64,000 nt of DNA from a virus. The translations under genes and the position numbers were made by a program. Where the stretch lies: positions 126,268 through 190,267 of the IMG/VR virus record IMGVR_UViG_3300022902_000004; one strand, 5' to 3'. Positions within the stretch are counted from its first letter, which is position 1. Each line of letters opens with the position of its first letter. Positions 6,661 to 54,870 of this stretch are shown one piece after another. Below the pieces are notes generated by a model. It made no database searches and was not told the DNA's origin. It saw only the letters and a program-made list of their open reading frames with translations.

Positions 6661-7179
6661 CTAGAATCCCGACAACACAGCTTCCATTTTTTCTGCCATC
6701 TCGTCGTAATTGCTACTTCCGTTGGCACCCATGTTGACGACCTTTCTGCCGTTTACAATGATCCACCCGTTTCTGCCGTCAATTTTTATTTCTGCATCTG
6801 GGTATCGGCGCTTGAATTTTGCCCTCAACGATTTTGCAGCAGACATTGATGCGGGACCTGCTTGGTTATAGCTTCGTTTGCGGGGCTTTCTGCCTGTCGG
6901 TGAGTAACCATAATTCTGATCGCGACCATAATTTTGTTCATTGACCTGTTTCGAAGGTGCCAGTCGATTCGTCATGATCCCATAAACGTCTCCGTTTCCA
7001 AAATCTACGTCGGCCATGTCACCCATTTTGTGCATTTTCTTGACAGTGCCTTTCCTTGTTTTACCAAAGATCTCCGTTGTAACAATATCGCCTGGTTTTA
7101 CTACCTTTCCTACTGGTTTGGCACGCCATGGTGTGCTTTCTCGAATCAAGTTTCTAATTTGTCGTCGTGTGATTTTCAT
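6661..7179 (-). CDS. MKIT-tag family protein (basic; putative capsid-targeted internal protein)
   Basis: Starts MKITRRQIRNLIRE. 172 aa, Lys/Arg-rich. SD AAGGTGGA. Paralog of the 20.7-25.4 kb cluster. Confidence 0.6.
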   Translation of the reverse strand: MKITRRQIRNLIRESTPWRAKPVGKVVKPGDIVTTEIFGKTRKGTVKKMHKMGDMADVDFGNGDVYGIMTNRLAPSKQVNEQNYGRDQNYGYSPTGRKPRKRSYNQAGPASMSAAKSLRAKFKRRYPDAEIKIDGRNGWIIVNGRKVVNMGANGSSNYDEMAEKMEAVLSGF

Positions 7180-7182
7180 GGG

Positions 7183-7440
7183 TTACATCCACCTTTGTAC
7201 TTTTCTATTGAGTACCTTCATCGCCTGATATTTGATTCCTGGTGCTCTAAAACCGCCGCCGATACGTTCAGCCTCATCGTCGATATACCTGATCAGTGAG
7301 TCAATCTCTCTTTCAACGTTTGCCATAAGGTCGTCGCGCTCCTGGTCCTCATCATCAGAAACCGTGCCGTCCGCGTTCATCTCTGAGAGGATCTTCTCTT
7401 CATTGATAAGTCTTCGTAATTGTTTTTTTGTAATTTTCAC
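7183..7440 (-). CDS. MKIT-tag family protein (acidic; putative capsid-targeted internal protein)
   Basis: GTG start, MKITKKQLRRLINEE. SD AGGAA overlaps the sheath stop codon. 85 aa, acidic C-terminus. Confidence 0.55.
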   Translation of the reverse strand: MKITKKQLRRLINEEKILSEMNADGTVSDDEDQERDDLMANVEREIDSLIRYIDDEAERIGGGFRAPGIKYQAMKVLNRKVQRWM

Positions 7441-7449
7441 GTGCTATTC

Positions 7450-10400: not shown

Positions 10401-10533
10401 CGAAAGCAGGACCTCGTACTGACGTTCCTACAACACCTGCAGGAATTCCAGAGGGAGAAACCTGTGTGGGTCCTGAAAGGTCAATTTCATTCGCCACTAC
10501 GCCCGGACTAACTGGAAAAGTGAATTCTGCCAT
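7450..10533 (-). CDS. contractile tail sheath protein, paralog 1 (gp18-like, ~1027 aa)
   Basis: N-terminus SPGVVANEIDLSG...GVVGTS.RGPAFVPV and C-terminus FGQKTLLAAQSALDRVNVRRLLIDIRRKV match conserved sheath N- and C-domains. Roughly 50% identical to the adjacent paralog in those domains. Confidence 0.85.
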   Translation of the reverse strand: MAEFTFPVSPGVVANEIDLSGPTQVSPSGIPAGVVGTSVRGPAFVPVTMATFQDFISTFGNSDGTKFGPIAMREWLRNADSGVFVRVLGAGDGSARLSTGNNQGKVTNAGFVVGDRLVQSNGLVGDNSYSGAENLPGGALGRSYMLAAIMSESNGSTYLSDAGIQKNVNATPILRGMLMAPSGVIPALSHSLDLAGNMAPAANEAAYPSFGGSGVGNAGGNIGSVDVSNSKQEFVLLFNGHKNNATYKNVVTASFDPSVPNYFVNVLNTDPLKIEDAGHYLYTHYDIDPALAVATGTSVINPTVWFTNLEPVALLLTSTLNRDVGSATSATTVGVPNFENFEDRFEAAFSPFVVSQKFGGANKDLFRLTTLSDGLIGAGEVKVTIENIAASSKANNKYGTFDVLIRRFTDNDLNPAVLESFRGLSLDPSSDNYIAKRIGDQRTYFDFEAATGNQKIVVEGDYPSVSNYVRVTLSSDLKNDRLDPTALPTGFRGIHHLITSGTTIAGTAGSILTGSFATLRGSMSASISSDLLKRVVQPPIPMRESISTGASPKKNVQQSFTWGIQFETKTSVSLPNKNEKLDASLLSFTRYYPKFHTSWQNPLVGDNAGAADVGGTIFDADRFNNNFFSLERVQVITGSNDRPDPQQWAAASYRRNGTQASSLDDRDGTSKTNVRFLDSTKDFAHIPSQKYLKFTFPLQGGYDGTNVFDSEKSKFTDTAVRREMDDSTLQGGKNGPTVAALRKAVDVMEAKQDVDIQLLAIPGLRHSSVTDYAIESVERRFDALYVMDIEEKDEVNTFVTSSAQVISVTNTVNAFQSRALDSSFAAAYFPDVVIQDVATKTNVKAPSSAVVLGAMALNDAIGHPWFAPAGFSRGALQSALYPTVELLQANRDALYSADVNPIIGDVQANSGVTVFGQKTLLAAQSALDRVNVRRLLIDIRRKVRDVARTFLFEPNQASTIASFEARVQPILAAVQSQGGLDRFKVKIDASTTTQADIENNTIRGKIFLQPTKSIEFVSLDFVVSNNI

Positions 10534-10559: not shown

Positions 10560-13500
10560 TTATTCAAAACTTACGCCATTGTTTGTAATAATGAAGTCAA
10601 CCGAGATGAACTCAATCGCTCGGGTGGGCTTCACTTTGATTTGACCACGAAGTTTGTTCTGGTCAATTTCCGCCTTTGTGTTATTGCTTTCATCACAAAT
10701 AACCTGGAATGCTTCGATTCCCTGTCGGGCTTGAACGTATGTCAGCTCACGGATTGAATCAGCAGAGAACTTCTTTCGAGTTGTCGCATCATTCTGTTCG
10801 AATGCAAGACCTTGCGCGATAGAACGAATCCTTCGCTTTACGTCAATCAACATCCTTCTTGTGTTGATTCTGTTTAGTGCCGTTTGTGCAACCTGTAGCG
10901 TTTTCTGGCCGAAGATTACGTAGCCTGATCGTGGGAACGTTGCGATTGGGTTGATTTTAGCATCGTATAGAGAATCCCTATCCTTTGCTGACAACCTATT
11001 CTCAACGTTTTTCACGAAGCCTAGCGCTCCACGGTTGAAGCCTGCCGGAGCAAACCAAACCTGCTGGACACGGTCGTTGAAACCTAGTGCGCCCATTGCG
11101 GCAACAGACGGTGGAACCTGAACGACCCGGTTATTCACCTTGTCCTCGATTGTAACATCTGGGAAGTATGTCGCGACGTAGTTGTTATCAATCGCACGTG
11201 TTTCGAACTGGTCAATTGTCTTTGTGACATCAGAATTTGCTTCAGAGTCGTCGTACAATCGGTTCGAGCTCTTGTCGAATTCCACAGCATCCATAACATA
11301 CAATGCAAGACCGTATTTCTTGACCGCATCTGAAGCATGGTCGGTTACGAATGGCTCTCTCACACCAGGGATTGCCAACAGGTTGATCCTTGATGAGATT
11401 GGGTTTGTGATGATGTCCACAGCGGTTCGAATCGATGCAACATTGTTGTTGAGTCGTCCGCCGCCCGCCTGGTTAGCAGTTCCGATTAGTGCAAGACCAA
11501 TTCTGTCTGCGGCTCCGGGTGTTGGTTGTGCTTTACCGCCTGTGTCAGATGACAATGCTTTGTCACGGAAGTATCCTTGGTCTTCATCAAGGATGTTCGT
11601 TCCGTCAAATCCACCGTAGAACACGTTTGTGAACTTGTGGTACTCGGTGAAGCGATTGAACAGTGCCGATGATGTTGCGATCAACGACGCCATGGTGATT
11701 CGTCCTGTCCGTGCACCGTCAGTAACGGTGTATGTGGATGGGTTCGGACGACCATTTCGTACGTATGCAGCTTGGAGCATGTGCTCTCGGGCTGTGCCGG
11801 TGACTTGCGTCGTGACATCAGAAAGCTGTGTTGCGGCATTATATAGGGCCACTCGTGCCAAGGTGAATTTGTTATCGTTGAAGAAGTCTGCACCGGAACC
11901 GGTTACCAAACTGTCCATCTTCGAGATACCCTGGAACTTCGTGTATGTTCTAACAAGTGGGTTGATTCCTGCACCTTCATTTGAACGAAGGACCGCATCA
12001 GTGATACCGAGTGTCGAATCGTTGCTTGATGAAACAGGCAGCGGATCAGTTTTGACGCCCCAGTATAGTCGACCGTCAACACGTTCTGTGCTGCCAGGAT
12101 CGCCTAGGAATGTTGGGCTTATACCCTGGACTGCACCCTTCGTCACTTTCACTCGGAAAGGAAGAGGAGGTACGATAGAACCGGTGGTGGCCATAACTGA
12201 TGTGCCTGATGTATGGTAAACACCAAGGCGACGCCTTGTTACATCACCAATTGTTTCTCCGTTGAGACCTGTAAGTGCCGTTGAGCTATCAGTCAGCGTA
12301 TCAGTCGTCTTGATGACCGGAACTCCCCGGAAACCGAATGGCAACGAAGTTTTTGGAACCTTCTCCAACTCAACCTGCTCATTCATTACGATCCGAACAC
12401 GCTGCGAAACGTTCGGGTATTTTCCTGTTACAACTAGGCGGCGCTCATCTGGTGATTCCTGGTCCCAATCAAATCGAACCTTTTTGTCGCCAATGAGGCG
12501 TGCAACGTATCGCTCAGAGTTCGGGCCAAGTGAGCAGTTCGGGTACCTTTCCAGAATTGCTGAATTGCCGTCGCTGTCCTCGAATGATCTGATTTGCACC
12601 TCGAACAAACCGTATGGTTGTTTTTCGTTTGTGCTTGCTCGCAGACCTGCAATCGAAACCTTGAATTTTTCGTTGGCGTAAACACCATCGTCAATTGTTT
12701 CAAAACTGAACAAGTCATACTCAGCATCACCATATGGCTGTGAGATGAAATTCGTTGTTCGTGGAGTCTGGTATCGTGTATCATATCGACCGAATAGCTG
12801 CATAAACCCGACCGGAGTTCCGGCGGATGTGCTTTTGTTCGCTGAACCTGAAACCAACGCGACAGTTGGTACAACACTTGAAATCACAGGAGCAAGTGCA
12901 TGCTCGACTGCGAAATCGAGGTAAAGCAGATGCTCTTCCTCTTGGAACTTGAGTGGATCTGTGTTCAGGACCTTGCCGATGTAGTTCGCGTCGTGGGGAT
13001 CGAGTGAGGCGGTCAGAATTTTGATTCCGTCATAGCCTTCATCATACGCCCAGTCTTTTCCAGACGAAGAGCTAAGAATCAGTTTGAAATATTTGTTTTG
13101 TGTCAATGGGCTGGATGGAATTGAACCGACGAGTGCCGAGTTGTACCCGGGCGCAGACTGATCAGCGTAGGTTCCTGTATTGTCTAGCGCCATCATTCTT
13201 GTGCCAGTGGCGAGCAAAACTGCGCCCCGGACGAGGTTCATAGACGATGCATTGTTGATGCTGCTATTGTCAGTAAACATCGGGTAGCCATTTGTTTCAT
13301 CGTTTGCAACAGCATCATGCCGCGCGACGATGAACTGGACAAGCCCTTGACTGCCAGGCAAATCAGTATTCAACGAATCGCTGCCTGTAATTCTAAATCC
13401 TGCATTCTTGACAATTCCTGACCCGCGGGTGTTTGAAATATCGGTCGCAGTCTCATTTGCACCGGCACCGAGTAATCTCACATATGTAAGTGCTGTCCTA

Positions 13501-13727
13501 TTGTCAAGCCACTGCTTAACAGCATATGGACCAAACCGCTTTGCGTTGAGTGTTCCAAATTTTGTTTCGAAATCAGCGAAAGATCCGACAGTAACCGGAA
13601 CGAATGCCGGTCCTTTCTCAGATGTGCCGACAACACCGGCTGGCACACCCGTTGGCGCAACCTGCTGACCTGATAGGTCTATTTCCTGGTCGAAAAATCC
13701 AGGAGATCGAAATGTTTGCTCAGCCAT
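10560..13727 (-). CDS. contractile tail sheath protein, paralog 2 (gp18-like, ~1055 aa)
   Basis: N-terminus SPGFFDQEIDLSG...GVVGTSEKGPAFVPV, C-terminus FGQKTLQVAQTALNRINTRRMLIDVKRRIR. SD AAGGAGAAAAC. Collinear homology with paralog 1 throughout. Confidence 0.85.
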   Translation of the reverse strand: MAEQTFRSPGFFDQEIDLSGQQVAPTGVPAGVVGTSEKGPAFVPVTVGSFADFETKFGTLNAKRFGPYAVKQWLDNRTALTYVRLLGAGANETATDISNTRGSGIVKNAGFRITGSDSLNTDLPGSQGLVQFIVARHDAVANDETNGYPMFTDNSSINNASSMNLVRGAVLLATGTRMMALDNTGTYADQSAPGYNSALVGSIPSSPLTQNKYFKLILSSSSGKDWAYDEGYDGIKILTASLDPHDANYIGKVLNTDPLKFQEEEHLLYLDFAVEHALAPVISSVVPTVALVSGSANKSTSAGTPVGFMQLFGRYDTRYQTPRTTNFISQPYGDAEYDLFSFETIDDGVYANEKFKVSIAGLRASTNEKQPYGLFEVQIRSFEDSDGNSAILERYPNCSLGPNSERYVARLIGDKKVRFDWDQESPDERRLVVTGKYPNVSQRVRIVMNEQVELEKVPKTSLPFGFRGVPVIKTTDTLTDSSTALTGLNGETIGDVTRRRLGVYHTSGTSVMATTGSIVPPLPFRVKVTKGAVQGISPTFLGDPGSTERVDGRLYWGVKTDPLPVSSSNDSTLGITDAVLRSNEGAGINPLVRTYTKFQGISKMDSLVTGSGADFFNDNKFTLARVALYNAATQLSDVTTQVTGTAREHMLQAAYVRNGRPNPSTYTVTDGARTGRITMASLIATSSALFNRFTEYHKFTNVFYGGFDGTNILDEDQGYFRDKALSSDTGGKAQPTPGAADRIGLALIGTANQAGGGRLNNNVASIRTAVDIITNPISSRINLLAIPGVREPFVTDHASDAVKKYGLALYVMDAVEFDKSSNRLYDDSEANSDVTKTIDQFETRAIDNNYVATYFPDVTIEDKVNNRVVQVPPSVAAMGALGFNDRVQQVWFAPAGFNRGALGFVKNVENRLSAKDRDSLYDAKINPIATFPRSGYVIFGQKTLQVAQTALNRINTRRMLIDVKRRIRSIAQGLAFEQNDATTRKKFSADSIRELTYVQARQGIEAFQVICDESNNTKAEIDQNKLRGQIKVKPTRAIEFISVDFIITNNGVSFE

Positions 13728-42100: not shown

Positions 42101-42352
42101 GTGGACCTCTGCTATTTCAGCCAAACCGTTGAACCACCATGTCAAATTTGAAATCAGTTCAGGGGAAATGCCTTGGGTTTTTGAGTGAACGATGTCACCG
42201 GCGATGAAAATAATGTCTGGTTTCAAAGTATGCAACTTTGAAAATGCGTCTTCAAACGCTGTGCGATATTCATCGTGCCTAGAAAGAGAGCGCCAGTGTA
42301 TATCGCTTAAATGACAGATCTTAGTAATGTGACACCTCGAGGTTATTTTCAA
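39200..42352 (-). CDS. fused Mre11-Rad50 (SbcD-SbcC; T4 gp47-gp46 equivalent) recombination nuclease/ATPase
   Basis: N-terminal calcineurin-like phosphoesterase motifs (HLSDIHW, GDIVH, GNHD, TFHG). Then Rad50 Walker A FGKNRSGKSSL, long coiled coils, C-terminal signature/Walker B LIIDEGFGALD and ILIISHVDTV. Confidence 0.8.
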   Translation of the reverse strand: MKITSRCHITKICHLSDIHWRSLSRHDEYRTAFEDAFSKLHTLKPDIIFIAGDIVHSKTQGISPELISNLTWWFNGLAEIAEVHVTLGNHDGLILNPDREDAISPILAAIDNPRIKLYKKSGTYPMNDECNICVFSCFDEAGWPDVKPEEGKINIATFHGVVHNSETDAAWALESDVNLKFFEGYDFVMLGDIHKQQILDKAGRIRFSGSAIQQNYAETPGKGFLMWDIKSKDDFDVKHVEIKHEHPFVTLDYDDDLDKLQSEMEDYPSSAHVRVKIQSAATQADMSQIRAAIKSVSGPTEIVFKREVDAATLELSDELLDETIKLDSFDAVNNLIKEFYANAKLDDETINEMAKTLSGVWKSAKLADNSTSGRWSLRRMEFDNIFGYGEGNIVNFESASGITGIFGKNRSGKSSLCGAATYALFNGTDRGAMKNMHIVNARKGYCVAKALISKKGKNYLVERQTVKKTTKKGDHHAVTHLNLFESDETGTPLKDISEEQRRETEKILRGLVGTLDDFLLTTLASQGDINRFVDQGSATRKSILAKFLRLDILDTLFELVKQDLSIAKKMLKSAPEQQFDAKIVDKTAKVKARIAERTAESDSLGKITRILNNINSALDSQTKEMYVQTEIDDQAEKIRKANEDRDEFMETMSVASLERDVINATITEMKTKIQDIDFAKLKKKKVAIVDSEHGIIVATGEIETKSSKLRADKRAVKKLSDVPCADTFPQCKYIISAKKAEKNMLEKKDDLLASKKRVAALKSSLKKLLKENVDEKLAQKQEHDEKLFLLAQSKSKLSMKILGLESRISNVERDLAVDNSMLSRMKINLCSTESAKERKILVAKKKLATEKLQEAKLRIQTLSERIGLLTSEVKRLRTDKIQFEKNNQQVQILTLLGKALSRNGIPLQIVKRKLPVINVEIANILQGITGFTVELTVDDSAGMDIILNYGDSKRVIECCSGMEKMMSSLAIRTALVRVSSLPKADVLIIDEGFGALDATNVEACTTLLRSLTKTFRLILIISHVDTVKDVVDNIIEISTTKGHDAQVKFL

Positions 42353-43130
42353 AAATCATAACATACGTCCAATTCTTGTTATTACAAAAACCTATTGCAG
42401 CTCTTTTTTTTGCATCTACTTTTTCTGGGTCCCTTATAAACCCTTTGATTTCTTCAATGCATGTACTTCCGGAACAGCTTTCTACTAGTATATCCGGTAT
42501 GTATATATGTTCGGATCCGTCATGACTATATTTTATTTTTATGCCGTGCGACGTTGTAAACTTAACAACTTCATCACATGATTCAAGAAATCGCAATCTG
42601 CGCAGTTCGTATGACGACATATAATACATTCGTTCACCAGCTTTCTTCGAATAAAACCAGCCTCTTGCTGTGTTTTTCATTTGACCGGATTTTATAAAAA
42701 TCTTCTCAATTATTTCATCAAATTCTTTTTCGCTCTTTTTTGACCAATGGTTTTCTTTTATTAGTTGCCTTGTTTTATTCGAAACTGTTTTCCCGGTGCA
42801 GGCACTGCTATGCTTGTCTTTTCTGTCGTCAGTCCAGTACTCTTTTGCGTGTTTTTTTGTCCACCTAAACGCCTTACCGGTTTCATTGATTTGTTTCATG
42901 ACCCGACTGCCATTACTCGAAATAGCTTTTCGAATTTTCTTAGTTTCTTCTTTTGGTTTTTTTGACCAGTGATTTTCTTTAATTTTTTTGCTCACTTCTT
43001 TCTTCTTTTCACTTGTCATGACATCACCATACAATCGCCGATATTCGGCAACCCCCATATTATGTTTAAACTTCAAGTGAGAAGGAGAAATAATTCCAAA
43101 TTTTTTGTGGCATAGCTGACATTCTATCAT
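42321..43130 (-). CDS. freestanding homing endonuclease-like protein (zinc finger + ENHWSKK repeats + PD-(D/E)xK-like C-domain)
   Basis: Probable start MIECQLCHKKFG at 43130 (SD GAGGT). C-terminal YIPDILVE...CIEEIKG. 3' end overlaps the sbcCD-like start. Inserted between primase and Mre11-Rad50 genes. Confidence 0.5.
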   Translation of the reverse strand: MIECQLCHKKFGIISPSHLKFKHNMGVAEYRRLYGDVMTSEKKKEVSKKIKENHWSKKPKEETKKIRKAISSNGSRVMKQINETGKAFRWTKKHAKEYWTDDRKDKHSSACTGKTVSNKTRQLIKENHWSKKSEKEFDEIIEKIFIKSGQMKNTARGWFYSKKAGERMYYMSSYELRRLRFLESCDEVVKFTTSHGIKIKYSHDGSEHIYIPDILVESCSGSTCIEEIKGFIRDPEKVDAKKRAAIGFCNNKNWTYVMIFENNLEVSHY

Positions 43131-43185
43131 TTTAGATACCTCGCAGATATAAGTATCTTGACATCGGCCATGTGGCAAATTTTTG

Positions 43186-44145
43186 TCATAGTATAGAACC
43201 GCTCTTGATTTTTGAAATCTTGTGATTGAGAAAAGAAACTGGAGTCCACCGTGCCGTCGTCGCCAAAATGTCACGAACATCGCTTTTCGTTCTGCTGCCT
43301 AGGTCGTTACCCTTGATCGTTAAGTTATAAACGGAACAACCGGCAAGAGATAAACGGCGACATACGTCATGAATTCTGCTTTCTGCATCTTCATCAAACG
43401 CCACGATAACCGTACTTTCATGTTGCTTCAACCTCATAAATAAATTACTGCCTGATGCTAGCGAAGAACCTAACACAGGAACTGTATTCTCCGGACATTT
43501 TACTGCATCGAACACACCTTCCACAAGAATGATCGGTTCATCCCAGTTGATGTCGAACTCGTTAAAAATGACCGTTCGTTTCGGCACGTCAGCATTTTTG
43601 TATTTGAATTTTGTTTCATCGATGCACCTCGCCGTGTAGTAGTTGAGCTGGCCTGAGGCTGTAAATGACGGGAAGATTGCCTTGCGGCGAAACTTGAACT
43701 CATTTGACACACATATGCGCCATCTATACATATCCATTTTCGTCAGGCCACGGGCTTTTAGGTATCTTTTTACATCATTTGCGTCGGGATCATTTTTCGC
43801 GGACATTAACAAAACTGAATCTTCCGGCAGTTCCGGCGGCAGAATGATCTCTTCGAGAGCCTGCTGGTCTGTATATGACCGGTCTTCATGAAATAATTGT
43901 GCGCATCGAGGGGCATAATTTTTAGCGAACTTGCGAAACAAAAAGTTGATGTTTTTGCCAGAGGTGCCGCATACCCAACAATGATACCAGCCGGTTGCCA
44001 GCTCAATATATAGCTTTTTCTTATTTTTTCGGCCATCTTTGCAACTTGGACAGGAAACGTGGAAGTTTACCTTCCCAGTTTCCATGTAACCAGATCCAAA
44101 CGCAGCTTCAAATAAAGCAGTCTTTTTTGATATTTCTAAGCCCAC
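43186..44145 (-). CDS. DNA primase (DnaG/T4 gp61-like)
   Basis: Zinc-binding CPSCKDGRKNKKKLYIE...WYHCWVCGTSGKNINFL. Toprim motifs ILVEGVFDA and VIVAFDEDAES. Confidence 0.8.
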   Translation of the reverse strand: MGLEISKKTALFEAAFGSGYMETGKVNFHVSCPSCKDGRKNKKKLYIELATGWYHCWVCGTSGKNINFLFRKFAKNYAPRCAQLFHEDRSYTDQQALEEIILPPELPEDSVLLMSAKNDPDANDVKRYLKARGLTKMDMYRWRICVSNEFKFRRKAIFPSFTASGQLNYYTARCIDETKFKYKNADVPKRTVIFNEFDINWDEPIILVEGVFDAVKCPENTVPVLGSSLASGSNLFMRLKQHESTVIVAFDEDAESRIHDVCRRLSLAGCSVYNLTIKGNDLGSRTKSDVRDILATTARWTPVSFLNHKISKIKSGSIL

Positions 44146-44735
44146 TATACATTTGTATCACTAATGTCTGTGGTTTTCAAAACATCGGCGCCAAAACGAG
44201 CAACAACATATGCATCGGCGATGTCAAAACAAACTGCCTCATTACGTGTGATACCCTTATTCTTCCCGCTTTTGAGTACTTTTGTGGGCCATGGGTATGA
44301 AATCATGTCTGGTTGAACCTTCACCCACTCAAAAACTTGGTCTTTCGTGTTGAGGGGTAGTTTCCTGTTGACGAAGCACCCGACGGCTTTCCTCGTGGAA
44401 ATCACATTGGCCAGGTATAATGGGCAATCAAAAATTGAACGAGCGAGGTAACTAGCAATACCGTTGAACCGGTTTAGCTTCGCCAACGTCCCAGCAGAAG
44501 ACATCCTGCTTCTAAACGCCTGGAGAGCCTCCTCAACAACAATCACGTCAATCTCGTGATCGTACGCCACATCGGAAAGATGTTCCCTCAACATGCACGA
44601 CTTCGTATAGAGACCTTTTGTTTTTGTCATCGAAATACCGTCGGCAATGACAACACGATCTTCCATTGGTAACGATGTGTCAATTACACAAACACCCACG
44701 TTTGACGTTGAAACGTCCAATCCTAAAACTTTCAT
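44145..44735 (-). CDS. RuvC-like Holliday junction resolvase
   Basis: MKVLGLDVSTSNVGVCVID (Asp7 equivalent), VIVVEEAL (Glu66 equivalent), FDIADAY (DxxD). Confidence 0.65.
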   Translation of the reverse strand: MKVLGLDVSTSNVGVCVIDTSLPMEDRVVIADGISMTKTKGLYTKSCMLREHLSDVAYDHEIDVIVVEEALQAFRSRMSSAGTLAKLNRFNGIASYLARSIFDCPLYLANVISTRKAVGCFVNRKLPLNTKDQVFEWVKVQPDMISYPWPTKVLKSGKNKGITRNEAVCFDIADAYVVARFGADVLKTTDISDTNV

Positions 44736-44742
44736 ACACGTA

Positions 44743-45741
44743 TTATGACATAATTTTTAGTTCGCGTAAATCGTGTTCTGTTATGAATCGATATTCGTTG
44801 ATCCCTTCAGACTCACAGAATTTTCGGGATGCTAATGCTTTTTGTTGAACTTTTTCTGTGTTTATAAACATTGACGGTTTCACTTCCCATATTTGTCTTG
44901 TTCCGTCACTAAATTCAACCAAAAAATCAGGAATATACCACCTTTTTTCCCCATTGTAACGATATGGAATTTTAATTGTTTCATATCCATATGATGCTAC
45001 ATTATCATCATTGTCGAGAAAGTTCATTGTTATTAGTTCCCAACCGGAACGATAGAACATTTTCTTGCCTGTTTTTGGTGAAACGTGTTCACCGGCTTGG
45101 CGATTTTTTCCGTACGGCTTTATTTTGCCAGCTAACATCATTTCTGCACGTTTTAGCGACATAATTGCCTTAGATTCAACAGTATGGCACTTTCCATACA
45201 TCGGATTGTTTTTTCCCTTCGAGCGATTTGAATTACGTTGCTCGGCGCTCATTTTCTTTTTTGATTCTTCGCTATGCTTTCGACCTGTCCATGGGTGAAC
45301 ATATGTCCCTTCTTTTTGCTTTTTACGAATTGTACGACTAATATTTGCACGGGCTTCTGGCGTCATACTTTTCTCATGCCAAATCGCATAAGTTTCTGGG
45401 TTTTTTGATTTCCATGATCCGTAACATTGAGGTTTGCAAAAGCTTCCATGAATTTCATTTGGGGCAGCCTGAGACGTCCATCGCTCAATTAGTTTTCCGC
45501 AATCTCTGCAGTTTGCTTTTGTTATTGCTGCACCGTGACCGCCGAAGCCGTCAGACTTACGATGACCGTATGTACATTTTTTTGAACATCGATGTATTTT
45601 TGCTCTTACGTATGCAGTTCTATATTTTCCAGCACGCTCAAACGTCGAACCACAAATATCACATTTGATGACTACAACCGTTGGTGGATTACCAGGAGCG
45701 CCCGGTCTTTTTCTTGGAAGTTGTTTTATTTCTATGATCAT
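44743..45741 (-). CDS. freestanding homing endonuclease-like protein (NUMOD3-like repeats + PD-(D/E)xK)
   Basis: HPWTGRKHSEESKKKMSAEQR and NNPMYGKCHTVESKAIMS are NUMOD3-like. C-terminal WYIPDFLVEF...IWEVKP. Paralogous architecture to 25465..26460. Confidence 0.55.
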   Translation of the reverse strand: MIIEIKQLPRKRPGAPGNPPTVVVIKCDICGSTFERAGKYRTAYVRAKIHRCSKKCTYGHRKSDGFGGHGAAITKANCRDCGKLIERWTSQAAPNEIHGSFCKPQCYGSWKSKNPETYAIWHEKSMTPEARANISRTIRKKQKEGTYVHPWTGRKHSEESKKKMSAEQRNSNRSKGKNNPMYGKCHTVESKAIMSLKRAEMMLAGKIKPYGKNRQAGEHVSPKTGKKMFYRSGWELITMNFLDNDDNVASYGYETIKIPYRYNGEKRWYIPDFLVEFSDGTRQIWEVKPSMFINTEKVQQKALASRKFCESEGINEYRFITEHDLRELKIMS

Positions 45742-45781: not shown

Positions 45782-48277
45782 TTAATAATCGAGGCGGACT
45801 CTTACCACGTATCGGTCGCCGTCTCGCTTAATTGCAGGTTGTGCGAAGTTGGCACGACCTACAACGTTTAGGTTCTCATCATGGAATTGCATTCCCGTCA
45901 GGTATACAAATGACTTCGCCGTTTCATTGGGGTAATCACTTGGAACCATGTCCTGGTATGTCGGGTTCGGCGATGAGTTGACGAAACCCTTGTCGACAGG
46001 GACGTTGACTTCAAGGACGTGGATATTTCGCTGGCCTTCAAATGAGATTTCCCAGGCATCAGAACCAAACATAGGAAGATTCGGAGATTTGACAACGAGG
46101 ATTCCCTCTTCATAAATCACATTTCCAACCGACGCCCAGGTTGCATGTGAGCCCTCCGAATCAGCTCGGTACAGGTTACCATACCCATCGTCTTTCAGGG
46201 TTATCTGGACCCTCCCGTTCGACCCTGTTACAGCCAAATCCTTCAACACAATCGATTTTGGTTTCAATTGGTCGCCATAGAACATGTTTGACACATCAAA
46301 GAACACAACTTCATTCGAACTCGGGTCCTTTGTTCGCTGGAGAATTGTCAGAATGTTCGCGGGAGAAACAGCAGGATCCTCAGGGGTCGGACCGATTAGC
46401 GGAGCAACAATAGATCCAGAGATAAGTTTTGCCGTCCCTTGCTGGTCATCAAATTTTGGAAGAAATTCTGTGCTGACCAGATTTTCCAACGTAATCAATG
46501 ACAGGTCAATATTTCCAAAATCATTTCTAAATTTGTCCAGAATCGAACCGCTGGTAGCTTTGTCCAAGTTTCCTGAAAGCAACATTTTGAAATTCGGTGT
46601 GAACCTTCCGTTATCGCATGGAAGAATCGACAAGTTTCGTTTTCTATGGCTGCCGGATTCGTAGATCCAGTAGTTTGCAGATTTCGGTGTGATCGTCGTC
46701 GAATCAATTTGTGATGTTTCAAGACCGAGGTGCCGCGGTGTGGTTCCACGAACAAACTCACGAGTGAAGTTTTGAATGTTTAGCTCATGACCTCCAACAC
46801 CAAATGACATCGCTACGTTGAATGGATCGTTTGTCGTTCCAGTCGTATAGAAGAATGGAGTTTGATTCACATATCGAGGTTGGACTGCTTTGACGAAGAA
46901 TGGTGGCACATAGAATAACAACCCATCATTCGCAGAGCTTCCAGACAATTTTTGATCCGTGCCGGTCACATTACCATGAATGTAGTAATCACTAAATTCG
47001 GCACCTTTCATCGATGATGTCAGTATTTGTTGGTTGCTTCGGTAATTGTCGTAAATCTTGAGATCGTGAACCTCAGCATTCAACGGGTGACTGAACGATG
47101 AATCCGTCGGGTCTGTAGCACCATCATCGTCGTTGAAGTTCAGAACTCCGAATTGCCTGTGAGCTGTTGGGTTGAAATATCCTGCGATCGGTTTTGTGTC
47201 GTAGTTGCTTCCATCATAGAAGTTGCCGATGAACAAAGCATCAGCATCATGGTACTCATTCGATGTTACAATCGGTTGCATGACTGAAGCGCTTGTGATT
47301 GGGAATGTTCCCTTTTCCTGGCCGTCGATTACAAACGATCCGGTGCCACGAGCAACATTCTCACCTCCCCAACGGACAGCAATATGGTGCCACTTGTTGA
47401 AGGATAATGAGTTGTCGTCTGACATGAATAAGAAGCCCGGGTCAGCAGTCGCTCCTGGTGCAGTAACTGAATCGCCTGAGATTGTTATTTCGCTGGGTTT
47501 GATTTCTGCCGACTGGCTCAATTGGAGCAACAAACGGAAACCATCAGGCTTCGCCGTCTTCGATGAAATAGATGAACCGGTCACCAAACTAATCGCGTAT
47601 GACGACGACATATGGAAAATCGTGCCGGGTCGGTACTCATCCCCTACGTTCTCAGTTGTGTATCTCGGGTTGACATAGAAATCAAATGTGAAACTGGAAC
47701 TTGGGGCGTAAACATTTGTATCCTCAAGCGCGACCGTTCCAGTTCCTGCCGGGTAAATCAGGCATGTGTTCTCGGGAAGGTATGAGGATGTCACGAAATT
47801 CAGCGAATGATAGTTTGAATATGCCCATTGCAAAGTTGGGTATGCATGCCTGTAGAATGGAAACAATGATGTCTTCGTTACTCGTTTGCGCTGGAAATTC
47901 TTATCAATCTTGATTCCAGGCTCAAATCGTATGACATTTTGCTTCTTGTCGAATTGTGATGAACTTACAAGTCCGTGTACCTTGGAAATATATGCATCGA
48001 TAGCGCCGAAAGCGTTTATAGAGTTAGAAGCAGCCTCGACTGCGGCAGCTCTCAGGTTTTCTACTTGTTCATCATTTGCTGGATCAGCATTCAACCCAAC
48101 GTCAGAAAACACATCCTTGAACGCAGATGAGCCATCGGCGAATAAAGGAAGGGCACCGGTGATTCCAGAAGGGGTGACATGTACCATTGCCAGCGACGCA
48201 GATTTGTAGGTGCGCGCAGGTTCGGCTCGTAACGAATACCTTTCTACATTTTCTTTCGTGATCTTGATAATTGACAT
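45782..48277 (-). CDS. large structural protein (baseplate/tail fiber module, 831 aa)
   Basis: Long ORF, Ser/Thr/Gly/Asn-rich beta-type composition typical of baseplate wedge or fiber proteins. Confidence 0.5.
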   Translation of the reverse strand: MSIIKITKENVERYSLRAEPARTYKSASLAMVHVTPSGITGALPLFADGSSAFKDVFSDVGLNADPANDEQVENLRAAAVEAASNSINAFGAIDAYISKVHGLVSSSQFDKKQNVIRFEPGIKIDKNFQRKRVTKTSLFPFYRHAYPTLQWAYSNYHSLNFVTSSYLPENTCLIYPAGTGTVALEDTNVYAPSSSFTFDFYVNPRYTTENVGDEYRPGTIFHMSSSYAISLVTGSSISSKTAKPDGFRLLLQLSQSAEIKPSEITISGDSVTAPGATADPGFLFMSDDNSLSFNKWHHIAVRWGGENVARGTGSFVIDGQEKGTFPITSASVMQPIVTSNEYHDADALFIGNFYDGSNYDTKPIAGYFNPTAHRQFGVLNFNDDDGATDPTDSSFSHPLNAEVHDLKIYDNYRSNQQILTSSMKGAEFSDYYIHGNVTGTDQKLSGSSANDGLLFYVPPFFVKAVQPRYVNQTPFFYTTGTTNDPFNVAMSFGVGGHELNIQNFTREFVRGTTPRHLGLETSQIDSTTITPKSANYWIYESGSHRKRNLSILPCDNGRFTPNFKMLLSGNLDKATSGSILDKFRNDFGNIDLSLITLENLVSTEFLPKFDDQQGTAKLISGSIVAPLIGPTPEDPAVSPANILTILQRTKDPSSNEVVFFDVSNMFYGDQLKPKSIVLKDLAVTGSNGRVQITLKDDGYGNLYRADSEGSHATWASVGNVIYEEGILVVKSPNLPMFGSDAWEISFEGQRNIHVLEVNVPVDKGFVNSSPNPTYQDMVPSDYPNETAKSFVYLTGMQFHDENLNVVGRANFAQPAIKRDGDRYVVRVRLDY

Positions 48278-48343: not shown

Positions 48344-48589
48344 TCAATCTACATCACCAACCAATTGTTTTCGTTGTGCATGTGACAAGAAAAGAATCCG
48401 ATTTGCTAGAATATAGCACTCGGTGCAACCCTCGCCTAGGGCGAATGTAATGCAGTGCATGATGTCGTCGTCGTTGACATTGAAGTCATCTAAGACGATA
48501 TGTAAGCAACACCCGGCAGCGTTACGGTTGTATGCAGCTTCAACGCCGGCATATATTTTGTGATCAATTACAAGCTTATTTTCGTTCAT
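48344..48589 (-). CDS. hypothetical Cys-rich small protein
   Basis: Probable start MNENKLVIDH (48589, SD GGAG). Part of the early-gene island. Confidence 0.3.
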   Translation of the reverse strand: MNENKLVIDHKIYAGVEAAYNRNAAGCCLHIVLDDFNVNDDDIMHCITFALGEGCTECYILANRILFLSHAQRKQLVGDVD

Positions 48590-48857
48590 CGAGGAACTCC
48601 GACACTTTCTTGTTCCATACAACAACTGCTGGCCACCAATTATAGCCTGGATCGGGTACGTGGTAAACGACCTGCCCAATAGCGACAGTCCAACCGTCGG
48701 GTACACGCATAACATGAGGCGGCGTCGGTCCTGCGGAGATGCGGAAATTCCTGGCACCGACCCATTTCTCTTCAGCTAACGCTGCCCAGGTCATGCCGTC
48801 TAGATACTCACGTCTTCCGAGATCGCGGGTTTCAAGAGCTTCCATTTTATCTTTCAT
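48576..48857 (-). CDS. hypothetical protein
   Basis: Probable start MKDKMEALETRD at 48857. Trp-rich. Confidence 0.3.
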   Translation of the reverse strand: MKDKMEALETRDLGRREYLDGMTWAALAEEKWVGARNFRISAGPTPPHVMRVPDGWTVAIGQVVYHVPDPGYNWWPAVVVWNKKVSEFLDERK

Positions 48858-49752
48858 GCTGATCCTCATCCCACATGTATCGCGGGTCATCAGCGAAATT
48901 CTTGTACAATGTGGCGCCACCGGCGACCAACCCAAATACGTCCAGATCGAACTCAGCCTTTCCCTTTGTCATGGAAAACTGGCCAGGCTTCCCTTTCTCA
49001 TAGTCGGCGACCTTGCGATAAATGTCAACCGGAGGAACCCATTTGAACGGAATGTGTGTGGTGCAGTGCTCGCCTGCATTGTAATACGGCACTCGCTGGA
49101 TCGGATCATCAGGATCATCCAAAATGATGTCAGGATGGGCAGCCAAAATCTCCGCTGCTTTCTTGAGATCATATCGACCTTCGGTGAATGAACCATTCAT
49201 GTAGTCGTAGTGACGACCTGCCGGTAATGGTAAACCCTTTGCATCAAAAATGAGGTGATTGTAATTGTATTCCTCGATCAAAATCAACTTTTTGCCTTTC
49301 TCAATCGCAGCAAACGGTTTCTCACACTCACAAGCACTCAATTTGTCATAAACGTCCATGTACCCATAGCCGACTGACTGAACGATATCGAGATATTCCT
49401 GGGTGACAAGCTTGAAAATAGTATGGTTACCGTCACGCGTGGTGAAGTAGCTGCGCGACATTCGGAGCTGACCTTGACCTCGCAGGATTGCATCGAGCTC
49501 TGATTTCAAACAGATCCCTTCTGACATTTCAACATCATACTTCTTGCGCTGGGATTCATCCTGTAGGTTCACCAGAGATTCATCTTCGGCTCGTGATGCC
49601 ATTCGACACACAACGAAACCCAGATCGTTGTCTGGAAGAGGCAGAAATTCAATGTTGCGGGATGTGACCCTTGTAACCTTACTCCAGTTTCGTTGTGCGT
49701 TTTTCATCCTAACCCTCCCTGGCACCCAATGATTTCCTTGAGCACAGCCCAC
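48847..49752 (-). CDS. hypothetical protein (301 aa)
   Basis: Dominant-strand ORF in the early-gene island. No motif recognized. Confidence 0.45.
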   Translation of the reverse strand: MGCAQGNHWVPGRVRMKNAQRNWSKVTRVTSRNIEFLPLPDNDLGFVVCRMASRAEDESLVNLQDESQRKKYDVEMSEGICLKSELDAILRGQGQLRMSRSYFTTRDGNHTIFKLVTQEYLDIVQSVGYGYMDVYDKLSACECEKPFAAIEKGKKLILIEEYNYNHLIFDAKGLPLPAGRHYDYMNGSFTEGRYDLKKAAEILAAHPDIILDDPDDPIQRVPYYNAGEHCTTHIPFKWVPPVDIYRKVADYEKGKPGQFSMTKGKAEFDLDVFGLVAGGATLYKNFADDPRYMWDEDQHER

Positions 49753-49970
49753 GGGATTTCTGCTGTTACCGCCTGGAATCCGGCGTAACCTTGTCCGCTC
49801 GTCTCACCTAAAGCGCTAAGGCCGAGGTCACCACACCAGACTTCGATGTTCTCTGGTCCTTCAATGTCGAAGCCAGGCTGACCTGACCGGATCGTGATCT
49901 CCCAGCCCTGACAATGCCAGCGGGAAATTCCGTACTCGTCAGTTTTCCAAGTTTTTTCTTCGTGTGTCAT
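49704..49970 (-). CDS. hypothetical protein
   Basis: 88-aa ORF directly downstream of promoter 49992..50019. SD GGGGGTGA. Confidence 0.4.
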   Translation of the reverse strand: MTHEEKTWKTDEYGISRWHCQGWEITIRSGQPGFDIEGPENIEVWCGDLGLSALGETSGQGYAGFQAVTAEIPWAVLKEIIGCQGGLG

Positions 49971-49991
49971 GCTTCACCCCCGTACACATCA

Positions 49992-50019
49992 ATTATACCA
50001 CGATATGATGACTCTTACA
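49992..50019 (-). promoter_or_regulatory. sigma70-like promoter family member (TGTAAG-N16-TATAAT)
   Basis: Coding-strand sequence CGTGTAAG AGTCATCATATCGTGG TATAAT, 20 nt before the SD of 49704..49970. Confidence 0.55.
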
Positions 50020-50491
50020 CGATTCGGCTGGAGTTATTTGTCTCCATTTTGTCTGGTTCGAAACCTGGGATGCGAATCTTATATGTTGATGCCTGCCATG
50101 CTGACTCGTCATGACCGTACCACATCCATCCTGCCCTGGCATTATGCGGCGCTACATTGGCACGCTGATAAACAAGACCTTCACGGTTCAGTCGCATCAA
50201 TGCCTTGTGAACATCTTTTTCATATGCTTCAAGCTTGATCGCTAGCCCCTCTTTCGTCACACGGGGCATAAAATGATGGACTTCGAATGGGTCATCCTTC
50301 GTTTTGCTTTTGACAACCCATTCTCGAATTTTTGCTTGTACTACTTCCTTGACCTCTTCGTAGCAATCTCGTTTCTTTCGCCGGATGTGAACCTTTTTAC
50401 GCTTATGGTTTCCGCCACCTGAGAGTCTCCCGGCGGGATGCATTGGGAGCTCACGCCTATCCGGACTATTACTTGAATACTTTCCGTGCAT
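50015..50491 (-). CDS. hypothetical basic protein, possible winged-helix DNA-binding (LMRLNREGLV)
   Basis: 158 aa with a K/R-rich N-terminus. ATGA overlap with the upstream gene. Confidence 0.4.
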   Translation of the reverse strand: MHGKYSSNSPDRRELPMHPAGRLSGGGNHKRKKVHIRRKKRDCYEEVKEVVQAKIREWVVKSKTKDDPFEVHHFMPRVTKEGLAIKLEAYEKDVHKALMRLNREGLVYQRANVAPHNARAGWMWYGHDESAWQASTYKIRIPGFEPDKMETNNSSRIV

Positions 50492-50829
50492 TACACATTC
50501 TCCTTGACATATGCGAACACAAGTTCCTTCTCGTCTGGCGTCAGTTTCTTCAGCGCTTGCGACAAGGCAACATGTTTTAGTTGTCCCGAGTCCAGGACTC
50601 CTTTTAGATATGTCGCCGGGACGTTTTGGTCAGTGATGCACTGAATCGCAGTGCTGTACACCTTCACTTCCCTAATCGCAAAAGAGGCTTCGTAAGGGCC
50701 ACCCATCGCTTCATGCTTCCAGCCAGATTTGCGGATAACATCGGCGTCCTCGTAGTTTAGAAAATAACCTACTGTTTTGCTGCTTCGCCCTTCACAATCG
50801 GCGGCGGCCTTTAGCTCGAAAACTTTCAT
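50491..50829 (-). CDS. hypothetical protein
   Basis: 112-aa ORF, translationally coupled to its neighbours. Confidence 0.4.
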   Translation of the reverse strand: MKVFELKAAADCEGRSSKTVGYFLNYEDADVIRKSGWKHEAMGGPYEASFAIREVKVYSTAIQCITDQNVPATYLKGVLDSGQLKHVALSQALKKLTPDEKELVFAYVKENV

Positions 50830-51533
50830 TTCTTACCTTCCTGGACGTGAATTAACACATCAAGCAATCCGCGCTGGTTGCGGAGGATGATTTTGAGGTT
50901 CTCATACGCCGGGTATTGACGTGGGAACTTTCGGCGGGCATGCCGAATCATTGGGAAGAACCACGTGTCCAGCTCACCGACGTACTTTTTCTGCTTGGGA
51001 ACGTCGAAAACGCCCTGCATCGTTTGGAGATTGTGGGCACGGTCAGCCAATTTCACCAGGCTGGCGATTGGATCCTCACTCATCTCACTGAAATACGAAT
51101 CGTATGTCTTGACAAGACCGGCTGATTTCTTCGAAAGGTGCCAGACTGCAGTAGCAACTCGCTCGCCGAACTTTGTCTCAAGATCGTTTCGAGTGAAACG
51201 TTCGGAGTGATCTTCCAGCACGTCATGAAGAATCGCCGCTGCCAGCGTATCCTCAGGGAACATAAAATTCGCCTCGAGGGTTGTTAATAGCCGGGTCACC
51301 GAAAGCTGGTGATGAAACTTAGGAGTCAGTCCATCCTTACGGGTTCCGCATTCAAGGGCACGGACCAGCTCCAACGCCTCGAGTGCCTTGTAATAACCCT
51401 TACCGTCAAGCCAGCCTCGCATGGTGGAAAGCTGCTTACGATGACGAACCTCAATCTCTGACGGTTCATGACATGCTGGTAACTGTTCAATGGTTTTCAT
51501 AGGCACCTCTAGTCGTTCAAAACGTGCAAGCAA
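50826..51533 (-). CDS. RelA/SpoT-type HD-domain hydrolase (small alarmone hydrolase-like, putative (p)ppGpp/ppApp pyrophosphohydrolase)
   Basis: FHHQLSVTRL ... AAILHDVLEDHSERFTRNDLETKFGERVATAVWHLSKK ... KLADRAHNLQTM match the Rel/SpoT hydrolase signature (H..H, HDxxED, FG..VA.LV, KLADRLHNMRT). Confidence 0.75.
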   Translation of the reverse strand: MLARFERLEVPMKTIEQLPACHEPSEIEVRHRKQLSTMRGWLDGKGYYKALEALELVRALECGTRKDGLTPKFHHQLSVTRLLTTLEANFMFPEDTLAAAILHDVLEDHSERFTRNDLETKFGERVATAVWHLSKKSAGLVKTYDSYFSEMSEDPIASLVKLADRAHNLQTMQGVFDVPKQKKYVGELDTWFFPMIRHARRKFPRQYPAYENLKIILRNQRGLLDVLIHVQEGKK

Positions 51534-51763
51534 ATGCCAGTTTCCTCGTTCTTGTATTTCGTTCCGCGGATTTCATTCATGTGCTCGACATATCCGGTGA
51601 ATTGGAACATCTTCTTTTCACCAGTGTGATGACTCACAACAATCGGCTCGTTGGTCCATGAGTAGAAATTGCCTGGCCAACGAAGATCAGATGCCTCAGC
51701 GACCAACAGCTTATCTGCTGAGTGCCAGCTCATGGTATGTGTGCTAATCTCTTCAAGAAACAT
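51509..51763 (-). CDS. hypothetical protein
   Basis: 84-aa ORF. Start ambiguous (M1 or M11). Confidence 0.3.
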   Translation of the reverse strand: MFLEEISTHTMSWHSADKLLVAEASDLRWPGNFYSWTNEPIVVSHHTGEKKMFQFTGYVEHMNEIRGTKYKNEETGICLHVLND

Positions 51764-54195: not shown

Positions 54196-54870
54196 TCACA
54201 CCTCCAGTGACGTATAACGCCACATGCACTTTTTATGCGTTGCTCTGTAACCTTTACAACATGCTAAAATGTTGTGGTCTTGACCACCAACGTGTTTTGC
54301 AGCATGTTGTGCCGATTCAAACCTTTGAATCTCTTTACCGGCCAAATCGAGTTGAGTTACCGGAGTTACCTTTCTTATTCTTTTTCGTAATGCAGCCGAT
54401 ATCTTCGCTCGGGCAGCCTGTGATTGCGGAGTCCCAAATGGTCGGCCACCATTACCAGGCAGGTCTGCGGCAAACAATCCTTTTGAAATTGCAGCGCAGT
54501 GTGCCTTTGATAGTTTCTTCCCCATTCGCGATTCGCTCATCTTCTTTTTTGTTTCTTCAGTGTGACGATATCCAAGCAGTCCGTCGCCGGCCAGCGTCAT
54601 GTTGTACCCACCATGATCAAGGTGTGTTTTTTCTTTTGCAATCCAAAACTTCTCTCGTTCGCGAAGAAGAGCTGTTTCACAAATCTCCAGGCACTCAACA
54701 TCAAAACTTGCTTCCCCGTATTTCCGGATTGCCTTTGATAAGACCGCTGTTGATTTCTTCCTTCGTGACGCTACAATATGCAATTTCCACCGGTCTTCGA
54801 TAGTCATCGTCGTCAACCCTACATATTGCCGATTGTTTTTGCAATTGGTAATTTTGTAGATGTTTCCCAC
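54196..54870 (-). CDS. GIY-YIG homing endonuclease (Seg-like) with NUMOD3 and NUMOD1 modules
   Basis: GNIYKITNCKNNRQYVGLTT (GIY-X10-YVG), R/E catalytic positions. NUMOD3-like GYRHTEETKKKMSESR. C-terminal NUMOD1-like FESAQHAAKHVGGQDHNILACCKGYRATHKKCMWRY. GTG start with SD AGGAGA. Confidence 0.8.
   Translation of the reverse strand: MGNIYKITNCKNNRQYVGLTTMTIEDRWKLHIVASRRKKSTAVLSKAIRKYGEASFDVECLEICETALLREREKFWIAKEKTHLDHGGYNMTLAGDGLLGYRHTEETKKKMSESRMGKKLSKAHCAAISKGLFAADLPGNGGRPFGTPQSQAARAKISAALRKRIRKVTPVTQLDLAGKEIQRFESAQHAAKHVGGQDHNILACCKGYRATHKKCMWRYTSLEV

Follow-up and report, generated by a model that had tools for sequence, protein, structure and literature searches.

A single-domain RelA/SpoT-type HD hydrolase of a novel large myovirus and its probable role in alarmone degradation

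The 64,000-nucleotide stretch of viral DNA analysed here (IMG/VR virus record IMGVR_UViG_3300022902_000004, positions 126,268 to 190,267 of that record; hereafter the window) encodes on its minus strand, at 50826..51500, a single-domain RelA/SpoT-type HD hydrolase. The protein is of phage origin, carries an intact and conserved catalytic centre, has no synthetase domain, is predicted to adopt the fold of RelA/SpoT homologue (RSH) hydrolases and is maintained by purifying selection; it is referred to below as the small alarmone hydrolase (SAH) of the window. The enzyme is probably a 3'-pyrophosphohydrolase, dependent on Mn2+, which during infection breaks down (p)ppGpp (and probably (p)ppApp as well) and so spares the cell an alarmone-driven shutdown; within this reading, we infer the metal (by analogy), the substrates and the benefit to the phage.

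Family identity

A sequence-only reading of this DNA had already proposed a Rel/SpoT-type, SAH-like HD hydrolase devoid of a synthetase domain, and profile searches, residue alignment, predicted fold and domain content now bear that assignment out. The motifs quoted in its favour are all present (H63-H64; LHDVLED, residues 91-97; FGERVATAV, residues 111-119; KLADRAHNLQTM, residues 150-161), the Pfam HD_4 search that it suggested returned a score above the gathering cut-off (51.8 against 27.2 bits), and the catalytic His and Asp residues, whose loss would have spoken against it, are retained, with H64, H92, D93 and D153 invariant across 33 family members.

The HD_4 (PF13328) match has E=9.6e-14 and spans profile positions 1-142 of 156, and is accompanied by a match to Pfam HD (E=1.2e-6); these are the only Pfam domains in the 224-residue protein, which contains no synthetase (RelA_SpoT), TGS or ACT domain. 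NCBIfam SpoT/RelA models, including TIGR00691, match through their hydrolase segment only (residues 48-172), from which the lack of a synthetase domain likewise follows. All 22 matches returned at E<=0.01 by a sequence search of the PDB are labelled as RSH hydrolase domains, SAHs or HD-domain proteins, the best being Acinetobacter baumannii SpoT (E=5e-12, residues 38-187) and the others including Corynebacterium glutamicum RelH, Pseudomonas aeruginosa SAH (PaSAH), several Rel enzymes and MESH1. Among PHROG families the protein matches PHROG 15275 (E=4.7e-35; residues 34-209 against profile positions 25-198 of 223), until now of 'unknown function' and for which a function is thereby proposed, followed by phrog_990, a metal-dependent phosphohydrolase. 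A phmmer search with full-length Escherichia coli SpoT against the six-frame translation of the window, of limited sensitivity for divergent synthetases, recovered only the SAH open reading frame (ORF), and did so via the hydrolase part.

Active-site residues

Residue assignments rest on alignment A2, which combines the SAH with human MESH1 (100% identical to 3NR1 chain A), E. coli SpoT, the SSU5 phage enzyme PaSpo and gp146 of phage RsoM2USA, and on alignment A1, which holds 33 family sequences at 55-94% identity. The positions concerned, all on the minus strand, are as follows.

51336..51341, codons R54-K55: base/phosphate-contacting basic pair, equivalent to RelSeq R44/K45, Thermus thermophilus Rel (TtRel) R43/R44 and MESH1 R24/K25 (HMMER alignment to SpoT, 7qps/7qpr)
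51309..51311, codon H64: first metal-binding His, a metal ligand equivalent to MESH1 H35 (A2; codon checked in the sequence)
51210..51227, codons H92-D93-V94-L95-E96-D97: HD metal pair and ED catalytic pair; H92-D93 are metal ligands equivalent to MESH1 H61-D62, and E96-D97 form the catalytic dyad equivalent to MESH1 E65-D66 (A2; codons likewise checked)
51021..51044, codons D153..T160 (DRAHNLQT): D153 is a metal ligand equivalent to MESH1 D122 (A2); N157, the conserved Asn of the KLADxxxN motif (D+4), is equivalent to MESH1 N126 (A2) and TtRel N150; T160 is equivalent to TtRel T153

In RSH hydrolases, the H/HD/D tetrad binds Mn2+ and the ED pair activates a water molecule to cleave the 3'-pyrophosphate (Hogg et al. 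2004 and Sun et al. 2010, as cited in later papers). The corresponding tetrad of the SAH, H64/H92-D93/D153, also aligns with that of E. coli SpoT in A2. Fourteen positions are invariant in A1 (R54, K55, D56, T59, P60, H64, H92, D93, E96, K150, D153, R154, N157 and T160), and D97 is conserved in at least 90% of the sequences. In the HMMER alignment to SpoT, R54-K55-D56 fall on the R-K/R-S segment, which in T. thermophilus Rel stacks on and hydrogen-bonds the guanine base, and N157 and T160 correspond to the TtRel residues N150 and T153, whose roles are described in the same work (PMC10083569). Retention of R54, K55, N157 and T160 argues, at the level of sequence, for a guanine-competent and probably promiscuous pocket.

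Predicted fold and selective constraint

The AlphaFold2 model, computed on the family alignment, is a confident one, all-helical with 11 helices (mean predicted local distance difference test score, pLDDT, 94.8; predicted template-modelling score, pTM, 0.90), and it predicts the all-alpha RSH hydrolase fold. In a Foldseek search of the PDB, RSH hydrolases fill the first 37 places, PaSAH at the head and RelH, TtRel, SpoT, MESH1 and Aph1 after it, and unrelated folds appear only at E>0.4. Two conserved helical regions are specific to the family, one N-terminal (residues 15-49) and one C-terminal (residues 167-222), as judged from A1 and the model; since full-length SpoT aligns with the model over 215-218 columns, nearly all of its length, these terminal helices correspond to parts of the hydrolase domain of long RSH enzymes.

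Comparison with an orthologue of 94% identity gave a nonsynonymous rate (dN) of 0.042 and a synonymous rate (dS) of 0.86 (dN/dS 0.049); the gene is therefore under strong purifying selection, functional and constrained. These observations bear on the idea that the HD domain is catalytically dead or repurposed, in the manner of the RelA pseudo-hydrolase, and sequesters alarmones or binds a host protein. The conserved helices at 15-49 and 167-222 could form an interaction surface for such a role; the metal-binding and catalytic residues, however, are all present and invariant across the family (D97 at the frequency given above), which would be unexpected for a pseudo-enzyme, and the dN/dS of 0.05 likewise speaks against it, so that we regard this explanation as very improbable.

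Probable function

In the reading that we favour, the large myovirus would make the stand-alone SAH during infection, and the enzyme would strip hyperphosphorylated nucleotides of their 3'-diphosphate, with (p)ppGpp as its primary substrate and (p)ppApp as a probable further one. The infected cell would be kept out of an alarmone-driven shutdown, whether arising from the stringent response or from alarmone-synthetase toxins, and transcription, translation and nucleotide supply would thereby continue for phage production.

Several points weigh against this reading. PHROG 15275 bears no functional label, identity to characterised enzymes is only 19-26%, and identity to the validated phage SAH of SSU5 is only 29% over an 80-residue core. 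In addition, substrate promiscuity is a trait of RSH hydrolases (NADPH and pyrophosphorylated tRNA are further substrates of MESH1; bioRxiv 10.1101/2021.04.30.441581), and the physiological substrate of the SAH is therefore not readable from its sequence. Finally, some phages infect (p)ppGpp0 hosts less well (PMC12814882), and lowering ppGpp is thus not always an advantage.

If the enzyme is active, a large lytic phage would override a central bacterial stress and defence signal, which bears on how huge phages keep host translation running and evade abortive infection based on alarmones or on tRNA pyrophosphorylation. The concept has been published and validated for other phage SAHs, and the value here is incremental: a conserved, apparently phage-restricted lineage (350 clusters) is defined, a recurrent pair of SAH and ADP-ribosylglycohydrolase is flagged in its relatives, and the SAH of the window is offered as a clean candidate for substrate-range testing across ppGpp, ppApp and pyrophosphorylated tRNA.

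Comparison with characterised enzymes

Stand-alone SAHs of phages are already established; the window gene is a new, uncharacterised member of this group, and the anti-defence idea attached to it is not new. Jimmy et al. (2020) found that the SAHs of phages SSU5 (PaSpo) and PVP-SE1 (PbcSpo) neutralise all five toxic small alarmone synthetases (toxSAS) tested, namely FaRel, FaRel2, PhRel, PhRel2 and CapRel, and suggested that these hydrolases allow an incoming phage to get past alarmone-based defence (PMC7229694). SSU5 PaSpo also removes the tRNA modification, and reversal of tRNA pyrophosphorylation by SAHs was described by Kurata et al. (bioRxiv 10.1101/2021.04.30.441581). Like the window gene, the SSU5 and PVP-SE1 genes are orphan phage SAH genes with no adjacent toxSAS, and SSU5_099 is of similar size (213 residues); unlike a close relative, however, PaSpo aligns with the SAH only over a catalytic core of 74-80 residues at 29% identity and represents a different SAH lineage. 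Membership of the PaSpo subfamily was accordingly rejected on pairwise alignment to SSU5 PaSpo, with BLASTP giving 29% identity over 80 residues (E=5e-4) and hhalign 74 core columns at 91% probability. In the catalogue of Iyer et al. (2021), the HD-alarmone phosphodiesterases of jumbo phages appear as predicted counter-alarmone enzymes, a purely computational annotation whose example protein is BBI90576.1 (PMC7824862); the concept is the same and, judging by the description, the gene set is probably broadly the same. Phage genome papers now routinely annotate such genes, Pseudomonas phage Adele being an example.

The best structural match, PaSAH (PDB 6YVC, 6Z3N, 6Z3O; template-modelling (TM) score 0.78-0.82 normalised to the target, root-mean-square deviation 2.3-3.1 Å), is likewise a single-domain RSH hydrolase with the same metal-binding and catalytic residues, but the two proteins are only 24-26% identical and PaSAH is chromosomal rather than viral. 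The SAH also exceeds PaSAH by some 45 residues, having a further pair of conserved helices at the N terminus and long helices at the C terminus. Long RSH enzymes (SpoT/Rel; PDB 7QPR, 6S2T, 1VJ7) differ in that the window protein ends after the hydrolase domain.

Aph1 (PDB 7SMG), from a Bacteroides temperate phage, is a (p)ppApp-specific hydrolase of about 140 residues that lacks helices alpha0 and alpha9, is encoded beside its cognate toxin and has an Asp (D24) where (p)ppGpp hydrolases have a base-stacking Arg (PMC10083569). Both it and the SAH are phage-borne RSH-type HD hydrolases; in contrast to Aph1, however, the SAH keeps the Arg (R54, invariant) and the helix sets at both termini, and no toxin gene lies beside it. 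In the Foldseek search (structural alignment only), Aph1 comes no higher than 29th, with a TM score of 0.50 normalised to the query. Assignment to the (p)ppApp-specific class typified by Aph1 was rejected because R54 and the N- and C-terminal helices are present, and assignment to the type IV antitoxins (ATfaRel-like) or immunity SAHs (Aph1-like) was rejected because no adjacent toxic alarmone synthetase was found by Pfam, PHROG and phmmer searches, the last of limited sensitivity.

Human and Drosophila MESH1 (PDB 3NR1, 5VXA) are also single-domain SAHs, sharing the RKD, H, HD, ED, D and N positions; they differ in being metazoan and in their low identity to the window protein (26% in A2, 22-23% in Foldseek). 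The main in vivo substrate of MESH1 has been proposed to be NADPH (bioRxiv 10.1101/2021.04.30.441581), and a related role can be considered for the SAH, namely that of a metabolic phosphatase which would rewire host redox or cofactor pools through its action on NADPH or on some other cofactor phosphorylated at the 2' or 3' position (such as 3'-phosphoadenosine 5'-phosphosulfate, PAPS). Consistent with such a role, the R-K-D motif is common to both proteins (R54 K55 D56 against R24 K25 D26), the MESH1-NADPH and MESH1-PAPS structures (5vxa, 9chy) are among the fold matches, and an orphan bacterial SAH is reported to be metabolically promiscuous (PMC9765508). Nevertheless, bacterial SAH and SpoT outrank MESH1 in both sequence and fold matches, the base-contact residues typical of (p)ppGpp hydrolases are kept and no phage precedent was found in the literature searched, all of which makes a MESH1-like role improbable.

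Genomic neighbourhood across relatives

Neighbouring ORFs within 5 kb of the SAH gene were clustered across 27 non-redundant loci; no neighbour was common to more than six of them, and the SAH gene is thus without a fixed partner. Among the 150 neighbouring ORFs of at least 150 residues, a Pfam census gave the following counts.

Methyltransf_23: 5
ADP_ribosyl_GH: 4
DFP: 4
TnpB-like (Cas12f1-like_TNB): 4
Nuc_deoxyri_tr2: 3
Endonuclease V: 3
PolyA_pol: 2
Thg1: 2
NUDIX: 2
Macro: 1
HAD_SAK_1: 1

By jackhmmer, a methyltransferase lies near the SAH homologue in six of the 27 loci, and an ADP-ribosylglycohydrolase lies on the same strand, 11-903 nt downstream, also in six (L011, L017, L021, L023, L032, L046). 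The pairing of SAH and ADP-ribosylglycohydrolase is thus a recurrent one, and either enzyme could reverse modifications installed by toxins. In the window, no member of these recurrent families was found.

Individual loci vary considerably. On a 520-kb scaffold (L005, 8001-12311), the cluster around the SAH homologue comprises a methyltransferase, a LOG/DprA-like protein, MazG, NUDIX and one more HD_4 protein, of divergent sequence, with ART-PolyVal and rIIB nearby; it has the look of a nucleotide-signal-degrading island. On a 241-kb contig (L012, 1-9472), the gene stands between a 764-residue PolyA_pol/CCA-adding-type enzyme and an RNA ligase, with TROVE also present. Thg1 lies about 3 kb upstream of the SAH gene in L003 (4361-5182) and L027 (356-1159); such RNA-repair-type neighbours (Thg1, PolyA_pol) are anecdotal, at two of the 27 loci each. 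The relative on a 280-kb contig has a weak Gad1 match and a PARP-like gene near its SAH. In L003, a 378-kb phage-like contig, the SAH homologue is directly preceded by a TnpB-like Cas12f1-like_TNB gene (6795-7892), and an IS605 OrfB is also close.

No RelA_SpoT synthetase occurs in the precomputed Pfam annotation of six relatives' loci (L001, L003, L005, L011, L012, L013), and no toxic alarmone synthetase was found beside the SAH of the window, where the neighbours have no Pfam or PHROG matches and the phmmer screen with SpoT was of limited sensitivity. The SAH gene is an orphan in accessory territory and not one half of a toxin-antitoxin pair.

These neighbourhoods bear on another possible role for the same enzyme, that of a counter-defence eraser which removes the 3'-pyrophosphate from the CCA end of tRNA, and so restores aminoacylation, or degrades (p)ppApp made by toxSAS/CapRel toxins. 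The sequence-only reading had named CapRel-type toxins among the makers of ppApp, a point that requires correction: CapRel instead pyrophosphorylates tRNA (PMC9712102; bioRxiv 10.1101/2021.04.30.441581), and the relevant SAH activity against it would therefore be the removal of tRNA 3'-pyrophosphate. Several SAHs (MESH1, ATfaRel and SSU5 PaSpo) do remove this group and neutralise tRNA-targeting toxSAS (PMC7229694; bioRxiv 10.1101/2021.04.30.441581), and CapRel is an anti-phage system (PMC9712102). The loci of relatives hold 'undoing' or RNA-repair genes (ADP-ribosylglycohydrolase in six of 27, Thg1 and PolyA_pol in two each, and RNA ligase, HAD_SAK_1, Macro and Gad1 in one each), and the window SAH gene borders an indel hotspot of small accessory genes. 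Against this, none of those neighbours occurs in the window, none is found in more than six of the 27 loci and huge phages carry many such genes anyway; furthermore, tRNA recognition by the SAH has no known determinant, and an eraser role is itself compatible with (p)ppGpp hydrolysis. The eraser role is the main rival to the reading favoured here and, in our view, the less likely of the two.

A stronger form of this proposal is that the huge-phage SAH lineage is a dedicated eraser of tRNA-CCA 3'-pyrophosphates (or of (p)ppApp), and not mainly a (p)ppGpp hydrolase, within a loose modification-reversal and RNA-repair toolkit directed against abortive-infection toxins. ADP-ribosylglycohydrolase, Macro, Thg1, CCA-adding enzyme and RNA ligase would belong to it, and the terminal helices of the SAH would serve tRNA recognition; we consider this version doubtful. 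Blunting of (p)ppGpp, the role we prefer, and the undoing of toxSAS action are both plausible and consistent with the literature, and sequence cannot tell them apart.

Distribution of the lineage

A large protein database contains 142 relatives of the SAH at 55-94% identity, and a profile search of 1.84 billion cluster representatives retrieved 350 clusters at E<=1e-30, 1,256 at E<=1e-10 and 14,289 at E<=1e-3, with lineage clusters defined at 50% identity. The best homologue from a cultured phage is gp146 of the jumbo myovirus Ralstonia phage RsoM2USA (40% identity), followed at 33-37% by those of further jumbo myoviruses (RaK2/K64-1, GAP32, CBB, Serratia BF and Yersinia fHe-Yen9); most are annotated as 'hypothetical protein'. 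Every inspected homologue context is phage-like and large, on contigs of 240-536 kb (a 378-kb NCBI contig, a 520-kb scaffold with rIIB, contigs of 241 and 280 kb, and IMG/VR sequences of 402 and 536 kb). For 185,579 GTDB bacterial and archaeal species, a single genome each was scanned from motif seeds, a procedure that reaches only close members with both motifs, and no relative was found. Together these results suggest that the lineage is phage-restricted, and a bacterial origin or contamination was rejected on the grounds that the GTDB motif scan, which covers close family members, was empty and all inspected contexts are viral-looking.

Fusion partners ('Rosetta stone' evidence) were also considered and proved uninformative, the ten longest members showing tandem HD_4 domains, one CDP-OH_P_transf and one Nuc_deoxyrib_tr with Sel1. 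Two tandem HD_4 domains are seen in P0121 (509 residues) and P0180 (400 residues), which could reflect real duplication or fused gene calls.

Gene model

The ORF list gives a minus-strand ORF at 50826..51533, of 235 residues if begun at TTG. The sequence-only reading had adopted these limits; the ORF is real, while its start is more likely the ATG at 51500 (224 residues) than the TTG at 51533. The ATG is preferred because a GAGGTG Shine-Dalgarno sequence lies at 51504-51509, with its last G 3 nt upstream of the ATG, because a TTG start would overlap the upstream ORF (stop codon 51509-51511) by 25 nt, and because the closest homologues share this initiator Met and align over 100% of the 224-residue form. 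The nearest of these homologues are P0001 (225 residues, 94% identity) and P0002 (86%). The features of the locus, all on the minus strand, are as follows.

50491..50829: downstream ORF of 112 residues, whose ATG overlaps the SAH stop (ATGA, 50826-50829); no Pfam or PHROG match
50826..51500: SAH coding sequence, stand-alone RSH-type hydrolase, 224 residues plus TGA stop (ORF list, HD_4, homologue starts, AlphaFold2, Foldseek)
51501..51533: extension to TTG, probably untranslated; overlaps the upstream ORF, holds the ribosome-binding site of ATG 51500 and is lacking in homologues
51504..51509: Shine-Dalgarno-like GAGGTG, overlapping the stop codon of the upstream 84-residue ORF (direct sequence reading)
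51509..51763: upstream ORF of 84 residues, ending 8 nt before the SAH start; no Pfam or PHROG match, kept only in the closest relatives

The 112- and 84-residue neighbours were considered as operon or toxin-antitoxin partners and rejected, as they are confined to the closest relatives, in which they do not directly adjoin the SAH; an orthologue of the 112-residue ORF is present in L001/L020, parted from the SAH by inserted genes. A promoter and terminator scan around the gene gave counts not above those of shuffled sequence, and accordingly no inference on expression timing is drawn from it.

Phage context and other features of the window

The window is part of a novel large myovirus. Tail-sheath proteins (two paralogues), a major head protein, a portal and a large terminase are encoded alongside an SbcC-like nuclease, a primase, a RuvC-like resolvase and homing endonucleases, with nearly all ORFs on one strand; these structural and replication genes, along with the occurrence of homologues on 240-536 kb phage-like contigs and IMG/VR viral contigs, agree with the earlier view that the SAH is phage-encoded. 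No near-identical DNA was found among 50,697 deposited phage records (INPHARED), and the phage itself is therefore undescribed. No tRNA genes were found in the window, nor, by local hidden Markov model (HMM) and jackhmmer searches, did it contain elsewhere a second RSH gene, MazG, NUDIX, ADP-ribosylglycohydrolase, Thg1, CCA-adding enzyme or RNA ligase. The ten ORFs flanking the SAH have no PHROG match and a single marginal Pfam match (Laminin_G_3), which belongs to an 831-residue protein (45782-48277, minus strand; Laminin_G_3/concanavalin-like lectin, 26.1 bits, just below the cut-off); conserved in relatives at 86% nucleotide identity, this protein may be a fibre or receptor-binding protein.

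Collinearity of the window with its closest relatives (85% nucleotide identity) takes in the SAH and the small upstream genes. Directly downstream of the SAH, 48360-50540 is an indel hotspot holding four ORFs (137, 301, 88 and 158 residues) with no Pfam or PHROG match and no counterpart in L001, L002 and L020, which instead have genes of 88 and 119 residues between the SAH and a 112/135-residue gene; the hotspot looks like a site of accessory-gene exchange.

Elsewhere in the window, two very long tail-sheath paralogues are adjacent on the minus strand (7450-10533 and 10560-13727; 1027 and 1055 residues), both matching phrog_23 and phrog_10581, mainly via their C-terminal parts; duplicated giant sheath genes of this kind are unusual outside some jumbo myoviruses. 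A GIY-YIG-type homing endonuclease (54196-54870, minus strand; phrog_314, E=4e-34) is an insertion relative to L001, blastn collinearity being broken between 54191 and 54875. Lastly, the primase (43186-44145) and the RuvC-like resolvase (44145-44735) have on either side of them two paralogous endonuclease/HNH-like ORFs on the minus strand, at 42321-43280 and 44743-45741 (phrog_15427, phrog_218); these too may be mobile endonucleases.

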